From assembly GCF_003334385.1 (NCBI RefSeq), contig NZ_QOWN01000004.1: a stretch of 64,000 bases of DNA, one strand, 5' to 3'. The notes under the pieces were generated by a model. That model worked only from the letters and a program-made list of their open reading frames with translations. It had not been told where the DNA came from and ran no database searches. How positions within the stretch are numbered: the stretch's first letter is position 1; each line of letters begins with the position of its first letter. The translations under genes were made by a program, and so were the position numbers. Below, in pieces: positions 1 through 47,898 of the stretch. The DNA comes from Escherichia coli (GTDB lineage Bacteria > Pseudomonadota > Gammaproteobacteria > Enterobacterales > Enterobacteriaceae).

Positions 1-799
<799 letters not shown>

Positions 800-801
800 C
801 A

Positions 802-1143
802 ATGCGAATATTTGTCTACGGCAGTTTACGCCACAAACAAGGCAACAGTCACTGGATGACCAATGCCCAGTTACTGGGCGATTTCAGTATCGATAACTAC
901 CAGTTGTATAGCCTGGGCCACTATCCAGGCGCAGTTCCGGGGAACGGAACAGTACACGGTGAAGTTTATCGTATTGACAACGCCACGCTGGCCGAACTTG
1001 ATGCCTTGCGCACCAGGGGCGGTGAATACGCGCGCCAGTTGATTCAGACGCCGTACGGGAGTGCATGGATGTACGTTTATCAACGACCCGTCGATGGATT
1101 AAAGCTAATTGAAAGCGGCGACTGGTTAGACAGGGATAAGTAA
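802..1143 (+). CDS. ytfP: Gamma-glutamylcyclotransferase-family protein YtfP
   Basis: 113-aa ORF, length and sequence as E. coli YtfP; starts 3 nt after tamB stop. Confidence 0.85.
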   Translation: MRIFVYGSLRHKQGNSHWMTNAQLLGDFSIDNYQLYSLGHYPGAVPGNGTVHGEVYRIDNATLAELDALRTRGGEYARQLIQTPYGSAWMYVYQRPVDGLKLIESGDWLDRDK

Positions 1144-1153
1144 TAATAAAAGC

Positions 1154-1179
1154 ACGCCACCTTCGGGTGGCGTTGTTTT
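1154..1179 (+). terminator. Intrinsic terminator after ytfP
   Basis: Hairpin acgccacc-ttcg-ggtggcgt followed by a T-rich run (gttgtttt). Confidence 0.6.
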
Positions 1180-1522
1180 ATGCGATGTATCTCGCGATTT
1201 TTTTTTGTAACTTTTCCATCTTTTGCTTTTCTCTCCGAGCCGCTTTCCATATCTGCAATCGCATAAAAAACTCTGCTGGCGTTCACAAATGTGCAGGGGT
1301 AAAACGGGGGCACGCTTTGAACGGTGAGTATGAGTGAGGTCGGCTAACTTCCAGCAAGTGGCTATGAACAGCAAAATGGTGGTCGGGTTTGCTTGTTCTT
1401 ACCGTTCAAGCCTTGCAACCGCTGAGAATAATGATGGTGGAATAGAGAGTTTATTTATCGCGGGCATAAAAAAACCCTTACTAACCGAAGCCCGGCGTTC
1501 AGGGTTATTGCGCTAGAAGAAC

Positions 1523-2053
1523 TTATTTATTCTTTGCGCGCTCGAAGGAAGCAACGATTTCAGCTTTAGCGGCTTCTGCGTTTTCCCAACCTTCAACTTT
1601 CACCCACTTGCCTTTTTCGAGGTCTTTGTAGTGCTCGAAGAAGTGAGCGATCTGCGCTTTCAGCAGCTCTGGCAGATCGTTAACGTCTTTAATGTGATCG
1701 TATTCTTTGCTCAGCTTTGTGTGCGGAACAGCAATCAGTTTCGCATCTTCACCGGCTTCGTCGGTCATTTTCAGAACGCCAACCGGACGGCAACGGATCA
1801 CAGAACCCGGCTGCAGCGGGTACGGAGTCGGGACCAGTACGTCAACCGGGTCACCGTCCAGAGACAGGGTGTGGTTGATGTAACCGTAGTTGCACGGATA
1901 GAACATCGCGGTGGACATGAAGCGGTCAACGAACAGTGCGCCGCTCTCTTTGTCGATTTCGTATTTGATCGGATCTGCGTTAGCCGGGATCTCAATAACA
2001 ACGTAGATGTCTTCCGGCAGATCTTTACCCGCAGGGACGTTGAGTAAGCTCAT
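1523..2053 (-). CDS. ppa: Inorganic pyrophosphatase
   Basis: 176-aa ORF recognisable as E. coli Ppa ([32 protein letters not shown]...). Confidence 0.95.
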
Positions 2054-2362
2054 GTCTGTTTCCTTTAAAAATATGTGGCAAACAAGTGCCGAGTATTATA
2101 GCCAACTCGCGCCGAATGTCTTCGCTTGTTTTCGTCTTCATTTTCCTTTTTCGCCAATTTTAAGACGGTATACAGAGCAGGAAAATCCATAACCGTAGCC
2201 GCATTTTTCATAGTGAGATGAAAGCGATTACAAACTTGTGATTAACGTTTTATTTACTTCTTTGAAGTGTGATGTAACGCAATCCGTTACATAACGAATT
2301 GTCTATAGTTTTTTCGCGAACATCTTTTCACCAATAATAATTACCCCGACGAGGACAACCCT

Positions 2363-3319
2363 ATGTGGAAACGCTTACTTGTAGTCTCTGCAGTCTCGGC
2401 AGCCATGTCGTCTATGGCGTTGGCCGCTCCATTAACCGTAGGATTTTCGCAGGTCGGATCGGAATCTGGCTGGCGCGCCGCAGAAACCAATGTGGCGAAA
2501 AGTGAGGCCGAAAAACGCGGAATTACGCTGAAAATTGCCGATGGTCAGCAAAAGCAGGAAAACCAGATTAAAGCGGTACGTTCCTTCGTCGCGCAAGGGG
2601 TGGATGCGATCTTTATCGCTCCGGTGGTTGCGACTGGTTGGGAACCGGTATTAAAAGAGGCGAAAGATGCCGAAATCCCGGTCTTCTTGCTCGATCGTTC
2701 TATTGATGTGAAAGACAAATCTCTCTATATGACCACCGTCACTGCCGACAACATTCTCGAAGGCAAGTTGATTGGTGACTGGCTGGTAAAAGAAGTGAAT
2801 GGCAAACCATGCAACGTGGTGGAGCTGCAGGGCACTGTTGGGGCCAGCGTCGCCATTGACCGTAAGAAAGGCTTTGCCGAAGCCATTAAGAATGCGCCAA
2901 ATATCAAAATTATCCGCTCGCAGTCAGGTGACTTCACCCGCAGTAAAGGCAAAGAAGTCATGGAGAGCTTTATCAAAGCGGAAAACAACGGCAAAAACAT
3001 CTGCATGGTTTACGCCCATAACGACGACATGGTGATTGGTGCAATTCAGGCAATTAAAGAAGCGGGCCTGAAACCAGGCAAAGATATTCTGACAGGTTCT
3101 ATCGACGGCGTACCGGATATCTACAAAGCGATGATTGATGGCGAAGCGAACGCCAGTGTTGAACTGACGCCGAATATGGCAGGTCCCGCCTTCGACGCGC
3201 TGGAGAAATACAAAAAAGACGGCACCATGCCTGAAAAGCTGACGCTGACCAAATCCACCCTTTATCTGCCTGATACCGCAAAAGAAGAGTTAGAGAAGAA
3301 GAAAAATATGGGGTATTGA
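2363..3319 (+). CDS. ytfQ: Galactofuranose ABC transporter periplasmic binding protein
   Basis: 318-aa ORF with N-terminal signal peptide; matches E. coli YtfQ; heads the ytfQRT-yjfF block. Confidence 0.9.
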   Translation: MWKRLLVVSAVSAAMSSMALAAPLTVGFSQVGSESGWRAAETNVAKSEAEKRGITLKIADGQQKQENQIKAVRSFVAQGVDAIFIAPVVATGWEPVLKEAKDAEIPVFLLDRSIDVKDKSLYMTTVTADNILEGKLIGDWLVKEVNGKPCNVVELQGTVGASVAIDRKKGFAEAIKNAPNIKIIRSQSGDFTRSKGKEVMESFIKAENNGKNICMVYAHNDDMVIGAIQAIKEAGLKPGKDILTGSIDGVPDIYKAMIDGEANASVELTPNMAGPAFDALEKYKKDGTMPEKLTLTKSTLYLPDTAKEELEKKKNMGY

Positions 3320-3327
3320 GGGTTGCT

Positions 3328-3434
3328 ATGCCTGATGCCGATTCGTAGGCCGGATAAGGCGCTCGCGCCGCATCCGGCGGTGGTGCGCTGAAGCCTGATG
3401 CGACGCTTACCGCGTCTTATCATGCCTACTGGGA
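3328..3434. repeat. REP/BIME element
   Basis: gcctgatgcgacgc / ggccggataaggcg / gccgcatccggc motifs typical of E. coli REP palindromic units. Confidence 0.8.
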
Positions 3435-3458: not shown

Positions 3459-4961
3459 ATGACGACTAACCAACACCAGGAGATCCTCCGCACCGAAGGA
3501 TTAAGTAAATTTTTCCCCGGCGTCAAAGCGTTAGACAACGTTGATTTCAGCCTGCGCCGCGGCGAAATCATGGCGCTGCTCGGTGAAAACGGGGCAGGAA
3601 AATCAACGCTAATCAAAGCATTAACTGGTGTATACCACGCCGATCGCGGCACCATCTGGCTGGAAGGCCAGGCTATCTCACCGAAAAATACCGCCCATGC
3701 ACAACAACTCGGTATCGGCACCGTCTATCAGGAAGTAAACCTGCTACCCAATATGTCGGTCGCTGATAATCTATTTATAGGCCGCGAACCCAAACGCTTC
3801 GGCCTTCTACGCCGCAAAGAGATGGAAAAGCGCGCCACCGAACTGATGGCATCTTACGGTTTCTCCCTCGACGTGCGCGAACCGCTCAACCGCTTTTCAG
3901 TCGCGATGCAGCAAATCGTCGCTATTTGCCGGGCTATCGATCTCTCTGCCAAAGTGCTGATCCTCGATGAACCCACCGCCAGTCTCGACACCCAGGAAGT
4001 GGAGTTACTGTTTGACCTGATGCGTCAGTTGCGCGATCGCGGCGTCAGCCTGATTTTTGTCACTCACTTTCTCGATCAGGTCTATCAGGTCAGCGATCGG
4101 ATCACCGTCTTACGCAACGGCAGTTTCGTAGGCTGTCGGGAAACGTGCGAGCTACCGCAGATCGAACTGGTAAAAATGATGCTGGGGCGCGAGCTGGATA
4201 CCCACGCGCTACAGCGTGCCGGGCGAACATTGTTGAGCGACAAACCCGTTGCCGCGTTCAAAAATTACGGCAAAAAAGGAACGATCGCACCGTTTGATCT
4301 CGAAGTACGCCCCGGCGAGATCGTCGGTCTGGCTGGATTGCTGGGATCAGGACGTACCGAAACCGCCGAAGTGATCTTCGGTATCAAACCTGCTGACAGC
4401 GGCACGGCGTTGATCAAAGGCAAACCGCAAAACCTGCGATCGCCACATCAGGCTTCGGTACTGGGCATTGGCTTCTGCCCGGAAGACAGGAAAACCGATG
4501 GCATCATCGCTGCCGCCTCGGTGCGGGAAAATATCATCCTCGCTCTCCAGGCCCAGCGCGGCTGGCTACGTCCCATTTCCCGCAAAGAACAGCAAGAGAT
4601 TGCCGAACGCTTTATCCGCCAGCTTGGCATTCGCACACCTTCAACTGAACAACCGATTGAATTTCTCTCTGGCGGCAATCAGCAAAAAGTGTTGCTTTCA
4701 CGTTGGCTACTGACCCGACCGCAATTTCTGATCCTTGATGAGCCAACTCGCGGCATTGATGTTGGTGCCCACGCCGAGATCATCCGCCTGATTGAAACGC
4801 TATGCGCCGATGGTCTGGCGCTGCTGGTGATCTCCTCCGAACTGGAAGAACTGGTGGGCTATGCCGACCGGGTGATCATCATGCGCGATCGCAAACAGGT
4901 GGCGGAGATCCCGCTGGCAGAGCTTTCCGTTCCGGCGATCATGAACGCCATTGCGGCGTAA
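3459..4961 (+). CDS. ytfR: Galactofuranose ABC transporter ATP-binding protein (two ABC domains)
   Basis: 500-aa ORF with two Walker A motifs (GENGAGKST, GLLGSGRTE) and LSGG signature. Confidence 0.9.
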   Translation: MTTNQHQEILRTEGLSKFFPGVKALDNVDFSLRRGEIMALLGENGAGKSTLIKALTGVYHADRGTIWLEGQAISPKNTAHAQQLGIGTVYQEVNLLPNMSVADNLFIGREPKRFGLLRRKEMEKRATELMASYGFSLDVREPLNRFSVAMQQIVAICRAIDLSAKVLILDEPTASLDTQEVELLFDLMRQLRDRGVSLIFVTHFLDQVYQVSDRITVLRNGSFVGCRETCELPQIELVKMMLGRELDTHALQRAGRTLLSDKPVAAFKNYGKKGTIAPFDLEVRPGEIVGLAGLLGSGRTETAEVIFGIKPADSGTALIKGKPQNLRSPHQASVLGIGFCPEDRKTDGIIAAASVRENIILALQAQRGWLRPISRKEQQEIAERFIRQLGIRTPSTEQPIEFLSGGNQQKVLLSRWLLTRPQFLILDEPTRGIDVGAHAEIIRLIETLCADGLALLVISSELEELVGYADRVIIMRDRKQVAEIPLAELSVPAIMNAIAA

Positions 4962-9565: not shown

Positions 9566-9690
9566 CTTAGCCTGATATAGTGTGCGTAGGCCGGATAAGG
9601 CGTTCACGCCGCATCCGGCATTTGAGCATAGTGCCTGATGCGACGCTTGATGCGTCTTATCAGGCCTACAGGTGCACCGCATCCGGCAAA
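9566..9690. repeat. REP/BIME element (two or more palindromic units)
   Basis: gcctgatatag...taggccggataaggcg...gccgcatccggca...gcctgatgcgacgc...tcttatcaggcctac between mpl and yjgA. Confidence 0.8.
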
Positions 9691-19764: not shown

Positions 19765-19857
19765 GTTGCCAGCAGGTATTATATCGCCATAAATGCTACG
19801 AATATTATTGGATTCTCCTTATTATTTGCGGCGCTTTTTTCACTTACCGGAGGTTAT

Positions 19858-19911
19858 ATGGAACCTGATCCCACGCCTCTCCCTCGACGGAGATTAAAAC
19901 TTTTTCGGTAA
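19858..19911 (+). CDS. mgtL: mgtA leader peptide MgtL
   Basis: 17-codon proline-rich [20 protein letters not shown] inside the mgtA 5' leader. Confidence 0.8.
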
Positions 19912-20051
19912 GCCCGTCTTTTCACGGCGTTACCGGATGCGTAAGGCCGTGACGTTTTAACGTCCCTGCTCAGCTTTATTACCTTCAGGTAAGGCTTCGC
20001 CACGCCTGAAGACATTTCTGTACTGTTTCAGACAGTGCGGAGGGACTCCTT

Positions 20052-43666: not shown

Positions 43667-43751
43667 GCCGAAGTGGCGAAATCGGTAGACGCAGTTGATT
43701 CAAAATCAACCGTAGAAATACGTGCCGGTTCGAGTCCGGCCTTCGGCACCA
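43667..43751 (+). tRNA. leuX: tRNA-Leu (anticodon CAA)
   Basis: 85-nt sequence gccgaagtggcgaaatcggtagac...ggttcgagtccggccttcggcacca with anticodon loop ttgattCAAaatcaa and encoded CCA. Confidence 0.95.
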
Positions 43752-43764
43752 TCGGAGCATCAAT

Positions 43765-43788
43765 AGACGTCAACGGACGTCTTTTTTT
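43765..43788 (+). terminator. Intrinsic terminator after leuX
   Basis: Hairpin agacgtc-aacg-gacgtct followed by a T run. Confidence 0.75.
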
Positions 43789-43937
43789 GTGCCTGAAATC
43801 CAGTATTTACCCATCATTCCCGCTATATTAACTCTCTCAAGGTCAACCGACTTCAACGTACATCTACCAACAGATGTTGGTACAGATGATGGTATTTCCG
43901 GTTCGATAATGCTTGTACCAACAGGGAGGGGATAAGC

Positions 43938-45182
43938 ATGGCTCTAACAGATATCAAAGTCAGAACAGCTAAGCCAACAGATAAGCAATACAAGTTAACT
44001 GATGGCAGTGGTATGCATCTTCTTGTCCACCCTAATGGTTCTAAGTACTGGCGTTTGCAGTACCGTTTTGACGGCAAGCAAAAGATGCTGGCTTTAGGTG
44101 TTTATCCTGACGTGTCGCTTGCCGATGCACGGACTCGCCGTGACGACGCTCGTAATTTGTTGGCAAACAACATCGACCCGGGAGACAAAAAGAAAAGTGA
44201 TAAAATTGAGCAAGAAGAAGCCCGCACTTTTGAACAACTCGCAGTTGAGTGGCATGCAACAAATAAAAAGTGGTCGGAAGAACATAGCAGGCGAGTACTG
44301 AAAAGCCTGGAGGATAATCTGTTTCCAGCTATTGGTAAGCGGAATATTGCGGATCTCAAAACCCGAGACCTGCTAGCCCCAATCAAAGCCGTTGAACTGT
44401 CAGGACGGCTTGAGGTTGCTTCACGATTACAACAGCGAACCACGGCAATTATGCGCTATGCCGTGCAGAGTGGTTTACTGGACTATAACCCCGCGCAGGA
44501 GATGGTTGGCGCTGTTGCTTCAAGTAACAGACAGCATCGACCTGCTCTTCAGTTGAAGCGAATCCCAGAACTATTACGGCGCATAGATAGTTATACCGGT
44601 AGACCTCTTACTAGACTTGCCGTCGAACTCACGCTCCTGGTATTCATTCGTTCAAGTGAACTACGCTTTGCTCGTTGGTCTGAGATCGATTTCGAAACAT
44701 CAATGTGGACAATACCTGCAGAGCGCGAAGCTATTGACGGAGTAAAGCATTCACAGCGTGGTTCAAAAATGCGTACGCCTCATCTGGTGCCGCTTTCTCA
44801 TCAAGCTTTAGCAATTCTTAAAGATGTTTACAAACTTAGTGGTGATCGCGATTTTGTTTTCATCGGCGATCATGACCATCGCAAACCGATGAGTGAAAAC
44901 ACGGTGAACAAGGCGCTGCGCGTTATGGGTTATGACACGAAGGTAGAGGTTTGTGGGCACGGTTTCAGGACAATGGCCTGTAGTTCATTGATCGAGTCTG
45001 GATTGTGGTCGAGGGATGCAGTGGAAAGGCAGATGAGCCATATGGAACGTAACTCAGTACGCGCAGCTTACATTCATAAGGCCGAACATCTTGATGAACG
45101 GCGACTGATGCTGCAGTGGTGGGCTGATTTTTTGGATGCGAATAGGGAAAGCGAAGTTAGCCCTTATGACTTTGGCAAATAG
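43938..45182 (+). CDS. P4-type tyrosine integrase
   Basis: 414-aa ORF with C-terminal tyrosine-recombinase motifs (HGFRTMACS, RAAYIHK); good RBS gggagggg; adjacent to the tRNA 3' end. Confidence 0.9.
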   Translation: MALTDIKVRTAKPTDKQYKLTDGSGMHLLVHPNGSKYWRLQYRFDGKQKMLALGVYPDVSLADARTRRDDARNLLANNIDPGDKKKSDKIEQEEARTFEQLAVEWHATNKKWSEEHSRRVLKSLEDNLFPAIGKRNIADLKTRDLLAPIKAVELSGRLEVASRLQQRTTAIMRYAVQSGLLDYNPAQEMVGAVASSNRQHRPALQLKRIPELLRRIDSYTGRPLTRLAVELTLLVFIRSSELRFARWSEIDFETSMWTIPAEREAIDGVKHSQRGSKMRTPHLVPLSHQALAILKDVYKLSGDRDFVFIGDHDHRKPMSENTVNKALRVMGYDTKVEVCGHGFRTMACSSLIESGLWSRDAVERQMSHMERNSVRAAYIHKAEHLDERRLMLQWWADFLDANRESEVSPYDFGK

Positions 45183-45284
45183 TCTAATTCCTGATGCTTG
45201 CTATGTTCGATTTTGAAAAGCCGGCTTGAACTATAACCTATACTTTTTTATAACTGTATTATTCTGGCGACTCAGAGGTGCACT

Positions 45285-45518
45285 ATGAAAACTTTCGATA
45301 CTCAACTTGCGATGAGCATTGTATCGCACTCAACGGGAGGTTTTAGTTATGACACCCTAGCTAGAGCGTTGATTTCTAAAGATAAAAATGAAAATCCTGA
45401 CGACCTTCTTGAGTCGTGTCGAAATTTTTGTCTCTCTCTTGAGGAAAAAGGTATTCTGAGGCGATGCCAAAGATGTTCTCATTCTCAAGATGAGTATTTC
45501 GAGTATATTCCTCACTAA
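45285..45518 (+). CDS. Hypothetical small protein (77 aa) with CxxC pair
   Basis: AT-rich ORF with RBS (cagagg) and RRCQRCSHS near the C-terminus; followed by a perfect palindrome; no recognisable family. Confidence 0.4.
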   Translation: MKTFDTQLAMSIVSHSTGGFSYDTLARALISKDKNENPDDLLESCRNFCLSLEEKGILRRCQRCSHSQDEYFEYIPH

Positions 45519-45519
45519 C

Positions 45520-45551
45520 ATCAGTCCCTGAAAAAATTTTCAGGGACTGAT
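45520..45551. terminator. Perfect 14-bp-arm palindrome (possible bidirectional terminator or protein binding site)
   Basis: atcagtccctgaaaa-aa-ttttcagggactgat immediately after the 77-aa ORF stop. Confidence 0.5.
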
Positions 45552-45617
45552 TACTCCGCTCTTGTCATCCCCTTTTTTCTCCTGTAGCTTGTGTAACACG
45601 ATTCTGGGGGGGCGATT

Positions 45618-46574
45618 GTGAGCAACATCAACTTAATAACCACATGTACAAACGGCAAACACTACGGTAGTAGGGATATATTGAGTCTGAGTCAATTTTC
45701 ATCAGGCCGAACCCCTTCAAATGTGCTCGTGAATTCTTGGTGCAATGCTCTGAATGAAGCTATTTCTACATCTGCAACTATATGTGCAGAGGATCTTTAT
45801 AAAGGTGGGCACTGGGCGACGGCTAAAGCCATCTTAGATGATTATCCTATTGATTTATGGATTCTTTCTGCTGGTTTAGGACTCCTTCACCACAAAGACA
45901 ATGTTGTACCTTATAAAGCGACCTTTGCTGTTGGATATGACGAATCAATACCATTATATTCTCAAGAATATGTAGGGAAAAGTTTTCATAGAACATGGTG
46001 GAAAGAAATAACCAATAGATCTATTTTTAAATCTAAGCATCCTACATCTATTGTAGAATTAATGAAAAAAAGAAAAAGAGACTATTATATTATCTGTGGT
46101 TCTCCAGATTATATTAATGCAATTGAACTAGATATCATTAATGGTCTTGAGTATCTAGTTGATGCAAAAAAACAACTGCTTATTATAACTTCCAAAAAAA
46201 TCAATGGTAGGTTAACTACATACCTTTTCAAAACCAACCAAAATATGGCTCAGTGGCTGAGATGCAATATGCTCATGCTTAATATCAGTGTGGCAAAATA
46301 CATTGTGAAGGAATTTACGTCAAAACAACTCAATGATTTAAATGAGTTATCTCAAAAGTTAATAGAAGAACTCAAGGAGTTACCTGAGCGTGAAGTGAAA
46401 AAAGGAATTCGTCGTAGTCCGGAGGAAGTTAAGTCTTTCATTTTAAAGATTATGGAGAAAAATCCTGGTATCAGTGCTACACACGCGTTGCGTGAATTTC
46501 GTGACTCGGGAAATTCATTTGAGGAAAAACGTTTTCGGACTGAGTTTATGGCCCTGAGAGAGGCTAAACCTTAA
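45618..46574 (+). CDS. Hypothetical protein (318 aa), first gene of the putative modification module; possibly DpdC-like by context only
   Basis: AT-rich ORF with GTG start and G-rich RBS; no motif I can assign; sits directly upstream of the TGT-like gene. Confidence 0.5.
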   Translation: MSNINLITTCTNGKHYGSRDILSLSQFSSGRTPSNVLVNSWCNALNEAISTSATICAEDLYKGGHWATAKAILDDYPIDLWILSAGLGLLHHKDNVVPYKATFAVGYDESIPLYSQEYVGKSFHRTWWKEITNRSIFKSKHPTSIVELMKKRKRDYYIICGSPDYINAIELDIINGLEYLVDAKKQLLIITSKKINGRLTTYLFKTNQNMAQWLRCNMLMLNISVAKYIVKEFTSKQLNDLNELSQKLIEELKELPEREVKKGIRRSPEEVKSFILKIMEKNPGISATHALREFRDSGNSFEEKRFRTEFMALREAKP

Positions 46575-46626
46575 TGCTACTTGCCTGGGTTTCATGGTAG
46601 AATCCCCCGTTTTTTGAGGCTTTGCA

Positions 46627-47898
46627 GTGGCGTCACAGGAGAGTAAGTTGTCGAAGCTAAAGTATTTTTTCCCTGATAGTCAGGATTTTATCGATCCCAG
46701 TTTCGACTTCTTCCGCGAAACGCGTAACGAACATCGCGTGCGTCAACGTGACGATCAGTATCCGCATGAGGTTTTTCCTCATCCTTACGATGGTATGCTG
46801 GTTTCTAAAGCTGTAGTTGATGGTCTTGGCGGCGGCGAGAGCAAATATACTCGTGCCCAGCGTTTGCGTTACTTCCGTAATGGAATGAAGCACTTTTTCC
46901 GTCTGCCGGAAAATATGGAAACTATGGGTGATTGCGGAGCCTTCACATATGTTAATCAGGACGTCCCGCCATACCGTGTGGAAGAGGTGATTGAGTTTTA
47001 CGAAACTTCCCGCTTTAACCATGGCGTTTCTCTCGATCATATCGTTTTTGGCTATGAAAAACCTGGTGAGGTATTCAGTGGCGAAGTGTTGGCTGAATGT
47101 CGCCGACGCCAGGATATCACTCTGACCTTGGCTCAAGAGTTTTTAAACAAGTCTCAAAAGTCCTGTTTCACTCCCTTTGGCGTTGCACATGGATGGAGCA
47201 AAACCTCCTATCGTCAGTCTGTAGAGGCCCTGCTGGCCATGGGATACAGAAATATCACCATGGGGGGGATGGTGCCGTTGAAAACGGCGCAGATCCTTGA
47301 GACTCTCGAAGAGATTAAACCGCTGCTGAAAAGTGATACACGTATTCACTTGCTTGGCATTGCCCGTCCAGAGAGTTTCGCCGACTTTATCAAGTTTGGT
47401 GTGACCAGTATTGACTCGACAACACCGCTGCAGCAAGCCTTCAAAGATCGGAAAAACAACTATCATACGCCTGATGGCCCGGCCTATACCGCTGTGCGTG
47501 TCCCTCAGTTTGATGCGAATCCAAGTTTGAGTCGCAAAATAAAATCTGGCGTGATTGATCAGGATATTGCACGACATCTAGAAAAGGATGCCATGGCTGC
47601 CCTGTTTGAATATGATAAAGGGGCTTTGTCACTTGAGAAGACTCTTGATGCAGTCCTGGCATATGAACGCCTCCATTCGGGTGAAAAAGAGGCCGATAAA
47701 ATCCGTGCGGATTATGAACGTACGCTAGGAGAACGTCCTTGGAACCAATGCCAGTGCAATATTTGCCAGGCCATCGGTATCAACGTCATCATTTTCCGCG
47801 GAGCAGAACGTAACCGTCGCCGCGGTTTCCATAATATTCAGGTGTTGTACAACCGTTTACAGCACACATTGTCATTACGCTCAGAGGAACTGTCATGA
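46627..47898 (+). CDS. dpdA: tRNA-guanine-transglycosylase-like protein (DpdA-like DNA 7-deazaguanine transglycosylase candidate)
   Basis: 423-aa ORF, GTG start with gagg RBS; C-terminal zinc motif CQCNIC followed 22 residues later by His (TGT-type CxCxxC...H); DCGAF and DSTTP segments. Confidence 0.65.
   Translation: MASQESKLSKLKYFFPDSQDFIDPSFDFFRETRNEHRVRQRDDQYPHEVFPHPYDGMLVSKAVVDGLGGGESKYTRAQRLRYFRNGMKHFFRLPENMETMGDCGAFTYVNQDVPPYRVEEVIEFYETSRFNHGVSLDHIVFGYEKPGEVFSGEVLAECRRRQDITLTLAQEFLNKSQKSCFTPFGVAHGWSKTSYRQSVEALLAMGYRNITMGGMVPLKTAQILETLEEIKPLLKSDTRIHLLGIARPESFADFIKFGVTSIDSTTPLQQAFKDRKNNYHTPDGPAYTAVRVPQFDANPSLSRKIKSGVIDQDIARHLEKDAMAALFEYDKGALSLEKTLDAVLAYERLHSGEKEADKIRADYERTLGERPWNQCQCNICQAIGINVIIFRGAERNRRRGFHNIQVLYNRLQHTLSLRSEELS

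Follow-up and report, generated by a model that had tools for sequence, protein, structure and literature searches.

A chpSB-null allele of the Escherichia coli ytfP-ppa locus that very probably carries a chpB fossil left by two internal deletions

[quoted passage not shown] Is this module missing where ytfP and ppa lie much closer together, and, if it is, was it ever there? The question is raised by a 64,000-nucleotide stretch of E. coli DNA (RefSeq assembly GCF_003334385.1, contig NZ_QOWN01000004.1), hereafter the window, in which the 3' end of tamB is followed by ytfP, ppa, and then ytfQ and ytfR. A first-pass annotation placed chpS-chpB between ytfP and ppa in K-12, saw only about 380 bp there in the window, and judged chpSB to be apparently absent. 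Its statement on K-12 is correct, as b4224 and b4225 occupy that position, and its estimate of length is close: the ORF boundaries place the interval at exactly 1144-1522, or 379 bp. An equally short interval in K-12, which would have refuted it, is not seen there: the K-12 interval measures 886 bp. As for absence, a functional module is indeed missing, but the loss is not clean, and a chpB fragment of ~130 nt survives. We conclude that the interval is very probably a chpSB-null allele of the E. coli ytfP-ppa locus, with a chpB fossil left by two internal deletions.

A sequencing artefact can be set aside and the interval taken as a genuine allele, because window positions 700-2100 are 100% identical to BL21(DE3) and to other genomes among the matches listed. 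Its sequence and junctions are those of other E. coli without chpSB. Four mechanical ORFs of 56-82 aa can be drawn within 1144-1522; none of them recurs in other copies of the allele, one of which lacks any ORF of 40 aa or more, which agrees with the earlier remark that no convincing ORF lies here.

What the interval does contain is homology to chpB (Table 1). Compared with K-12 chpB by blastn, the remnant is 72.4% identical over 127 nt (E 2.3e-11 in a 4.6-Mb search space), and its local alignment score stands at z = 30.5 against 1000 shuffles. At the protein level, tblastn pairs 1339-1422 with ChpB residues 15-42 (28 aa, 50% identity), the only notable ChpB match in the 64 kb. For ChpS, tblastn gave no match in the interval and none at meaningful E-values elsewhere in the 64-kb window. 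By homology the remnant belongs with the ChpB/MazF (PemK) toxins, but it is not an intact reading frame of ~116 codons, since just codons 7-49 and the stop codon are represented. Read in the chpB frame it meets its first stop, TGA, at 1325-1327, followed by more stops and 1-bp indels, and ~27% of its positions are substituted relative to chpB. At the level of sequence, then, 1316-1440 is a pseudogene fragment of chpB, and because these ~130 nt survive, the site once held chpSB. The chromosomal site is that of K-12 chpS-chpB (ChpBS, chpBIK), and the homology and the retained stop codon tie the remnant to that module; with the antitoxin gene, the palindrome and 201 bp of chpB gone, and with stops and frameshifts in what is left, it is not a functional member.

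Table 1. Features at the ytfP-ppa locus, in window coordinates.
Feature	Position	Strand	Basis and remarks
ytfP, gamma-glutamylcyclotransferase family, left boundary gene	802-1143	+	ORF, 113 aa; annotated ytfP in matching RefSeq genomes
Left flank, homologous to the K-12 ytfP-chpS spacer	1144-1303	+	Alignment; 86.5% identical to K-12, diverged haplotype
ytfP terminator-like hairpin, ACGCCACC TTCG GGTGGCGT, and T-run	1154-1180 (hairpin 1154-1173)	+	Terminator scan; also in K-12
Second small hairpin, then T9 run	1181-1206	+	Terminator scan; putative function
Deletion junction 1, GGTAAA	1298-1303	+	Alignment; hexamer upstream of chpS and at chpB start ATGGTAAAG in K-12
chpB remnant, codons 7-49	1316-1440	+	blastn, multiple alignment, neighbour-joining placement, tblastn
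Deletion junction 2, TGGTGG	1435-1440	+	Alignment; hexamer at chpB codons 47-49 and last codons in K-12
End of chpB last codon and stop codon	1441-1445	+	Alignments; AA TAG here, AA TAA in K-12
Right flank common to K-12	1449-1522	.	97.3% identity
ppa terminator-like stem and U7 run, directly past ppa stop	~1466-1506	-	Fold z = +0.55; terminator role suggested by position
ppa, inorganic pyrophosphatase, right boundary gene	1523-2053	-	ORF, 176 aa; annotation in matching RefSeq genomes

The alignment to K-12 shows two deletions, each bounded in K-12 by a 6-nt direct repeat, that removed most of chpSB. GGTAAA occurs at positions 154 and 459 of the K-12 interval, and the 305 bp between the copies are missing in the window; TGGTGG occurs at positions 596 and 797, and the 201 bp between them are likewise missing. 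The sizes agree to within one base pair, as 886 - 305 - 201 gives 380 bp against the 379 observed. In the alignment the larger loss takes the palindrome before chpS, the ribosome-binding site and all of chpS, leaving no antitoxin gene directly upstream of, and overlapping, the toxin start as in a type II system. The smaller takes chpB codons 49 to 115, the C-terminal two thirds of the ChpB fold. In K-12 the palindrome is an imperfect one of 21 nt just before the chpS start, overlapping the ribosome-binding site (L001, 2403-2447), and is the putative chpS operator. From the position of these two elements, the chpS promoter may have lain in the deleted segment as well; a promoter scan found no consensus sigma-70 site upstream of K-12 chpS.

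We propose a model where an Escherichia-type chpSB formerly occupied the ytfP-ppa site and was cut down by the GGTAAA-bounded 305-bp deletion and the TGGTGG-bounded 201-bp deletion, through replication slippage or illegitimate recombination, as the microhomology suggests. What remained, chpB codons 7-49 and the stop codon, would then have gathered its stops, 1-bp indels and substitutions. The fragment would encode nothing and, given that a scan of window positions 1000-1700 found no promoter-like (sigma-70) site, would presumably be inert. Because the fragment would encode nothing, neither ChpB endoribonuclease nor ChpS antitoxin is expected from this locus in the strain.

Between K-12 and the window ytfP differs by 0.3%, against the 86.5% identity of the left intergenic flank, and the change of haplotype coincides exactly with the stop codon of ytfP; dS in the flanking genes is 0.014-0.067. 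A flank so diverged beside genes so close, with the boundary at the ytfP stop, suggests allele exchange by homologous recombination through the flanks. The first part of this flank (1144-1210) folds at -24.5 kcal/mol (z = -4.0).

How common is the allele? We counted its states in 5426 complete E. coli genomes, in all 5426 of which window positions 700-2100 find a match at the locus. The remnant segment, 1296-1450, is present in 2322 (43%), with at least 99% identity in 1528 and 90-95% identity in 703; the copies examined from the latter band come from the urinary isolate BH100 and the dog isolate D8. K-12 chpSB is present in 3100 (57%). Together the two counts come to 5422 of 5426, a statement about totals only, with one known overlap (HH45). 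Remnant carriers include BL21(DE3) and the B2 strains CFT073 and Nissle 1917, and the allele is found in genomes from humans, animals and the environment. Within the remnant 43%, 188 of the 5426 genomes (3.5%) also carry esiB, the gene of a secretory IgA-binding SEL1-repeat protein. In CFT073 (L006, 1483-2955) esiB sits between ytfP and the chpB remnant, so that the remnant lies downstream of it.

Other states of the locus are rare. In the CSF isolate N50 a licT / GH1 / beta-glucoside PTS operon adjoins ppa (L087, 1-3495), and an IS1 insertion is another such state. The HH45 locus (L003, 1207-1718) was considered as an intermediate allele and rejected, for it is a mosaic in which ~100 nt of K-12-identical chpB lie within a remnant-type interval. 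The patch, which RefSeq annotates as a partial PemK/MazF toxin, is preceded by ~130 nt of G/C-rich low-complexity sequence, and the HH45 allele probably stems from an error of assembly or polishing, or from a single event of gene conversion.

The absence of ChpBS from this locus is already known and was published in 2013. In 47 complete genomes, Pastorello et al. (2013, mBio, PMC3735183) gave chpBS in 53%, esiB in 15% and neither in 32% at the locus, and the window represents the "neither" state of this three-state esiB/chpBS locus. The passage there on the third state gives it as the absence of both genes, with no mention of a chpB fragment, whereas here a fragment is present. No specific account of a chpB pseudogene or remnant emerged from literature searches, and the anatomy of the remnant and its sharing with E. 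albertii may be undescribed. The anatomy is an incremental annotation point, not a discovery.

Beyond E. coli, a YtfP-based scan with one genome per species yielded 80 loci. Most other Enterobacteriaceae in the scan have a truly short ytfP-ppa gap of ~93-190 bp. Intact chpSB occupies the same site in four Escherichia species representatives, Lelliottia, Enterobacter asburiae, Pseudocitrobacter, a Kluyvera genomospecies and the Enterobacteriaceae isolate RIT691. In E. albertii (L012) and one more Escherichia representative (L010) the interval measures 378 bp, matches the window at 89-90% identity and shares its junctions and stops. Because these are shared, the two deletions happened once, and the allele either predates the species split or crossed it by recombination. 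On this evidence we take the remnant allele to be old. That remnant and intact chpSB coexist in E. coli suggests that the alleles pass from lineage to lineage, by homologous recombination in the conserved genes on either side.

In a neighbour-joining tree the remnant copies form one clade, joined to Escherichia chpB by a long stem. Identity of the remnant is 71-74% to Escherichia chpB, against 48-59% to chpB of other genera. The length of the stem reflects a distance of ~27% to Escherichia chpB, far above the 4-18% found among the remnant copies. Within E. coli the remnant diverges by 6.4-8.3% (7% between the window and the B2-type remnant), while dS in the flanking genes against CFT073 (B2) is 0.03-0.07, so within the species it drifts at about the pace of synonymous sites and no slower. 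The E. coli and E. albertii remnants are 12% apart, below the pS of tamB (0.33) and slightly below that of ytfP and ppa (0.17-0.18). This low divergence, the one hint of constraint, could be explained by recombination or by weak constraint, and recombination would account for it equally well.

Two further genera hold independent fossils. In Citrobacter sedlakii (L033, ~2930-3062) a chpB 3' fragment covering codons 63-107 survives, and in Enterobacter cloacae DSM 26481 (L035, ~4600-4668) a chpS 5' fragment, codons 9-31, lies next to ppa; both differ from the part kept in Escherichia. The ytfP-ppa site is a variable hot spot where chpSB has decayed repeatedly. A comparable decay was reportedly described by Mine et al. 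in Genetics in 2009 for the chromosomal ccdO157 toxin-antitoxin system of E. coli, where a type II module with a constant intergenic position on the chromosome is whole in some strains but degraded or gone from others. The two cases differ in that ccdO157 is of the CcdAB family and lies at folA-apaH, whereas the window concerns MazEF/ChpSB and a single remnant allele with fixed junctions across species.

Elsewhere in the scan the gap holds unrelated cargo, namely a large ORF with a same-strand 67-93-aa ORF directly downstream, a 541-aa ORF, or membrane proteins. The paired arrangement is seen in Citrobacter youngae (L018, 3103-4445) and Salmonella enterica subsp. arizonae (L019, 3234-4727), where the first ORF has 375-403 aa; by eye, this large ORF resembles an Hcp-type effector fusion with a small partner.

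Could the interval instead be an ancestral empty site that never held chpSB, the module having been inserted in K-12? The unoccupied state certainly exists in the family, as the ~93-190 bp gaps of most other Enterobacteriaceae attest. Here, however, the 379-bp gap holds a significant chpB fragment together with the chpB stop codon, and both junctions map to direct repeats within the K-12 sequence, which makes an empty ancestor very improbable. We see next to no chance that the module was lost recently in this strain's own lineage, for example by laboratory passage or another strain-specific event. Identity of 100% over 700-2100 to the laboratory strain BL21(DE3) might hint at such a loss, but the window is not BL21(DE3), for it carries the leuX dpd island described below, and the allele is spread through 2322 of 5426 genomes and has the same junctions in E. 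albertii. A 27% difference from chpB is, in addition, incompatible with a recent event.

It is also tempting to speculate that the remnant has taken on a role as a structured non-coding RNA or cis element, and so has persisted across species with its length nearly unchanged (377-379 bp). On the plus strand 1294-1430 is predicted to fold into a long, imperfect, G-U-rich hairpin (-51.5 kcal/mol, z = -3.5), and a weaker fold is predicted for the minus strand (z = -2.1). The B2-type copy folds similarly well (z = -3.1), eight pairs formed in the remnant are broken in K-12 chpB, and the divergence of the E. albertii remnant lies below flanking dS. Yet the K-12 chpB sequence already forms 32 of the remnant's 40 predicted pairs, and the K-12 piece itself folds at z = -2.5, so the hairpin, whose z of -3.5 is unexpected for pure junk, is mostly inherited from chpB. 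The E. albertii copy loses the fold (z = +0.24, four pairs broken), and the consensus fold for five copies of the remnant shows no compensatory change at any of its 45 predicted pairs. Substitutions relative to K-12 fall on 18 of 80 paired and 16 of 45 unpaired positions, with no clear difference, and drift within E. coli at about the synonymous rate also speaks against constraint. The promoter scan of 1000-1700 was negative, as noted above, and an Rfam scan of 900-2400, at E up to 1, gave no relevant match, only two sub-threshold chance hits outside the interval. The remnant thus has neither a match to a curated covariance model nor covariation in favour of a structured RNA. With no compensatory pairs, a fold lost in E. 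albertii and a hairpin mostly inherited from chpB, we rejected RNA exaptation as the main reading and consider such co-option very unlikely. We would also give only a slim chance to a wider version, in which fossil and intact chpSB form a long-lived polymorphism across Escherichia kept by selection, the length and hairpin of the interval reflecting use of the fossil as an RNA or DNA element, such as a transcription barrier between the convergent ytfP and ppa.

The hairpin has a counterpart in the intact gene. Within the 5' part of Escherichia chpB lies a long and imperfect inverted repeat, TTTGAACGGGGAG ... CTCTCCGTTCAAG, at 1316-1411 in the window and at 2711-2807 in K-12 (L001), and in chpB it is predicted to fold as an mRNA hairpin of ~95 nt (z = -2.5). 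Comparison with chpB from other genera breaks 14-19 of the 40 pairs predicted for the remnant.

Returning to the reading of the interval as a chpSB-null allele with a chpB fossil, its practical meaning is modest. E. coli strains commonly differ, as a natural polymorphism, in whether they carry ChpBS, and the complete genomes split ~57% to 43%; this is confirmation and has little discovery value. Work in K-12 on toxin-antitoxin-dependent persistence or RNA cleavage does not transfer to BL21(DE3), CFT073 or Nissle 1917. The remnant would make a textbook case of the death of a chromosomal toxin-antitoxin module, with two microhomology-bounded deletions followed by drift. Among the genomes listed, RefSeq places no annotation inside the interval or the remnant, and annotation pipelines could flag this fossil as a pseudogene.

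The remainder of the window offers several observations of its own. A tRNA-Leu(CAA) gene (leuX, 43667-43751) precedes an integrase-sized ORF (43938-45182), and past leuX comes a dpd gene cluster for 7-deazaguanine DNA modification and defence, in a region that spans 43667-59630 and runs on to ~64000. Nearly full-length matches to PADLOC profiles are seen for DpdC, A, B, E, F, G, H and I, and dpdJ carries a RefSeq annotation. Among the 5426 complete E. coli genomes, just 46 contain 80% or more of this 20-kb island, GE3, 2013C-4991 and O104:H21 94-3024 being examples. Rfam hits at gathering score comprise a magnesium riboswitch (19843-19958) upstream of an 898-aa ORF that is probably mgtA, Ysr276 (37500-37694), and four naRNA4 matches (3348-3426, 9589-9666, 36495-36570 and 36591-36666), which we take as REP-type repeats. 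The riboswitch, Ysr276 and naRNA4 matches look ordinary for this region of E. coli.
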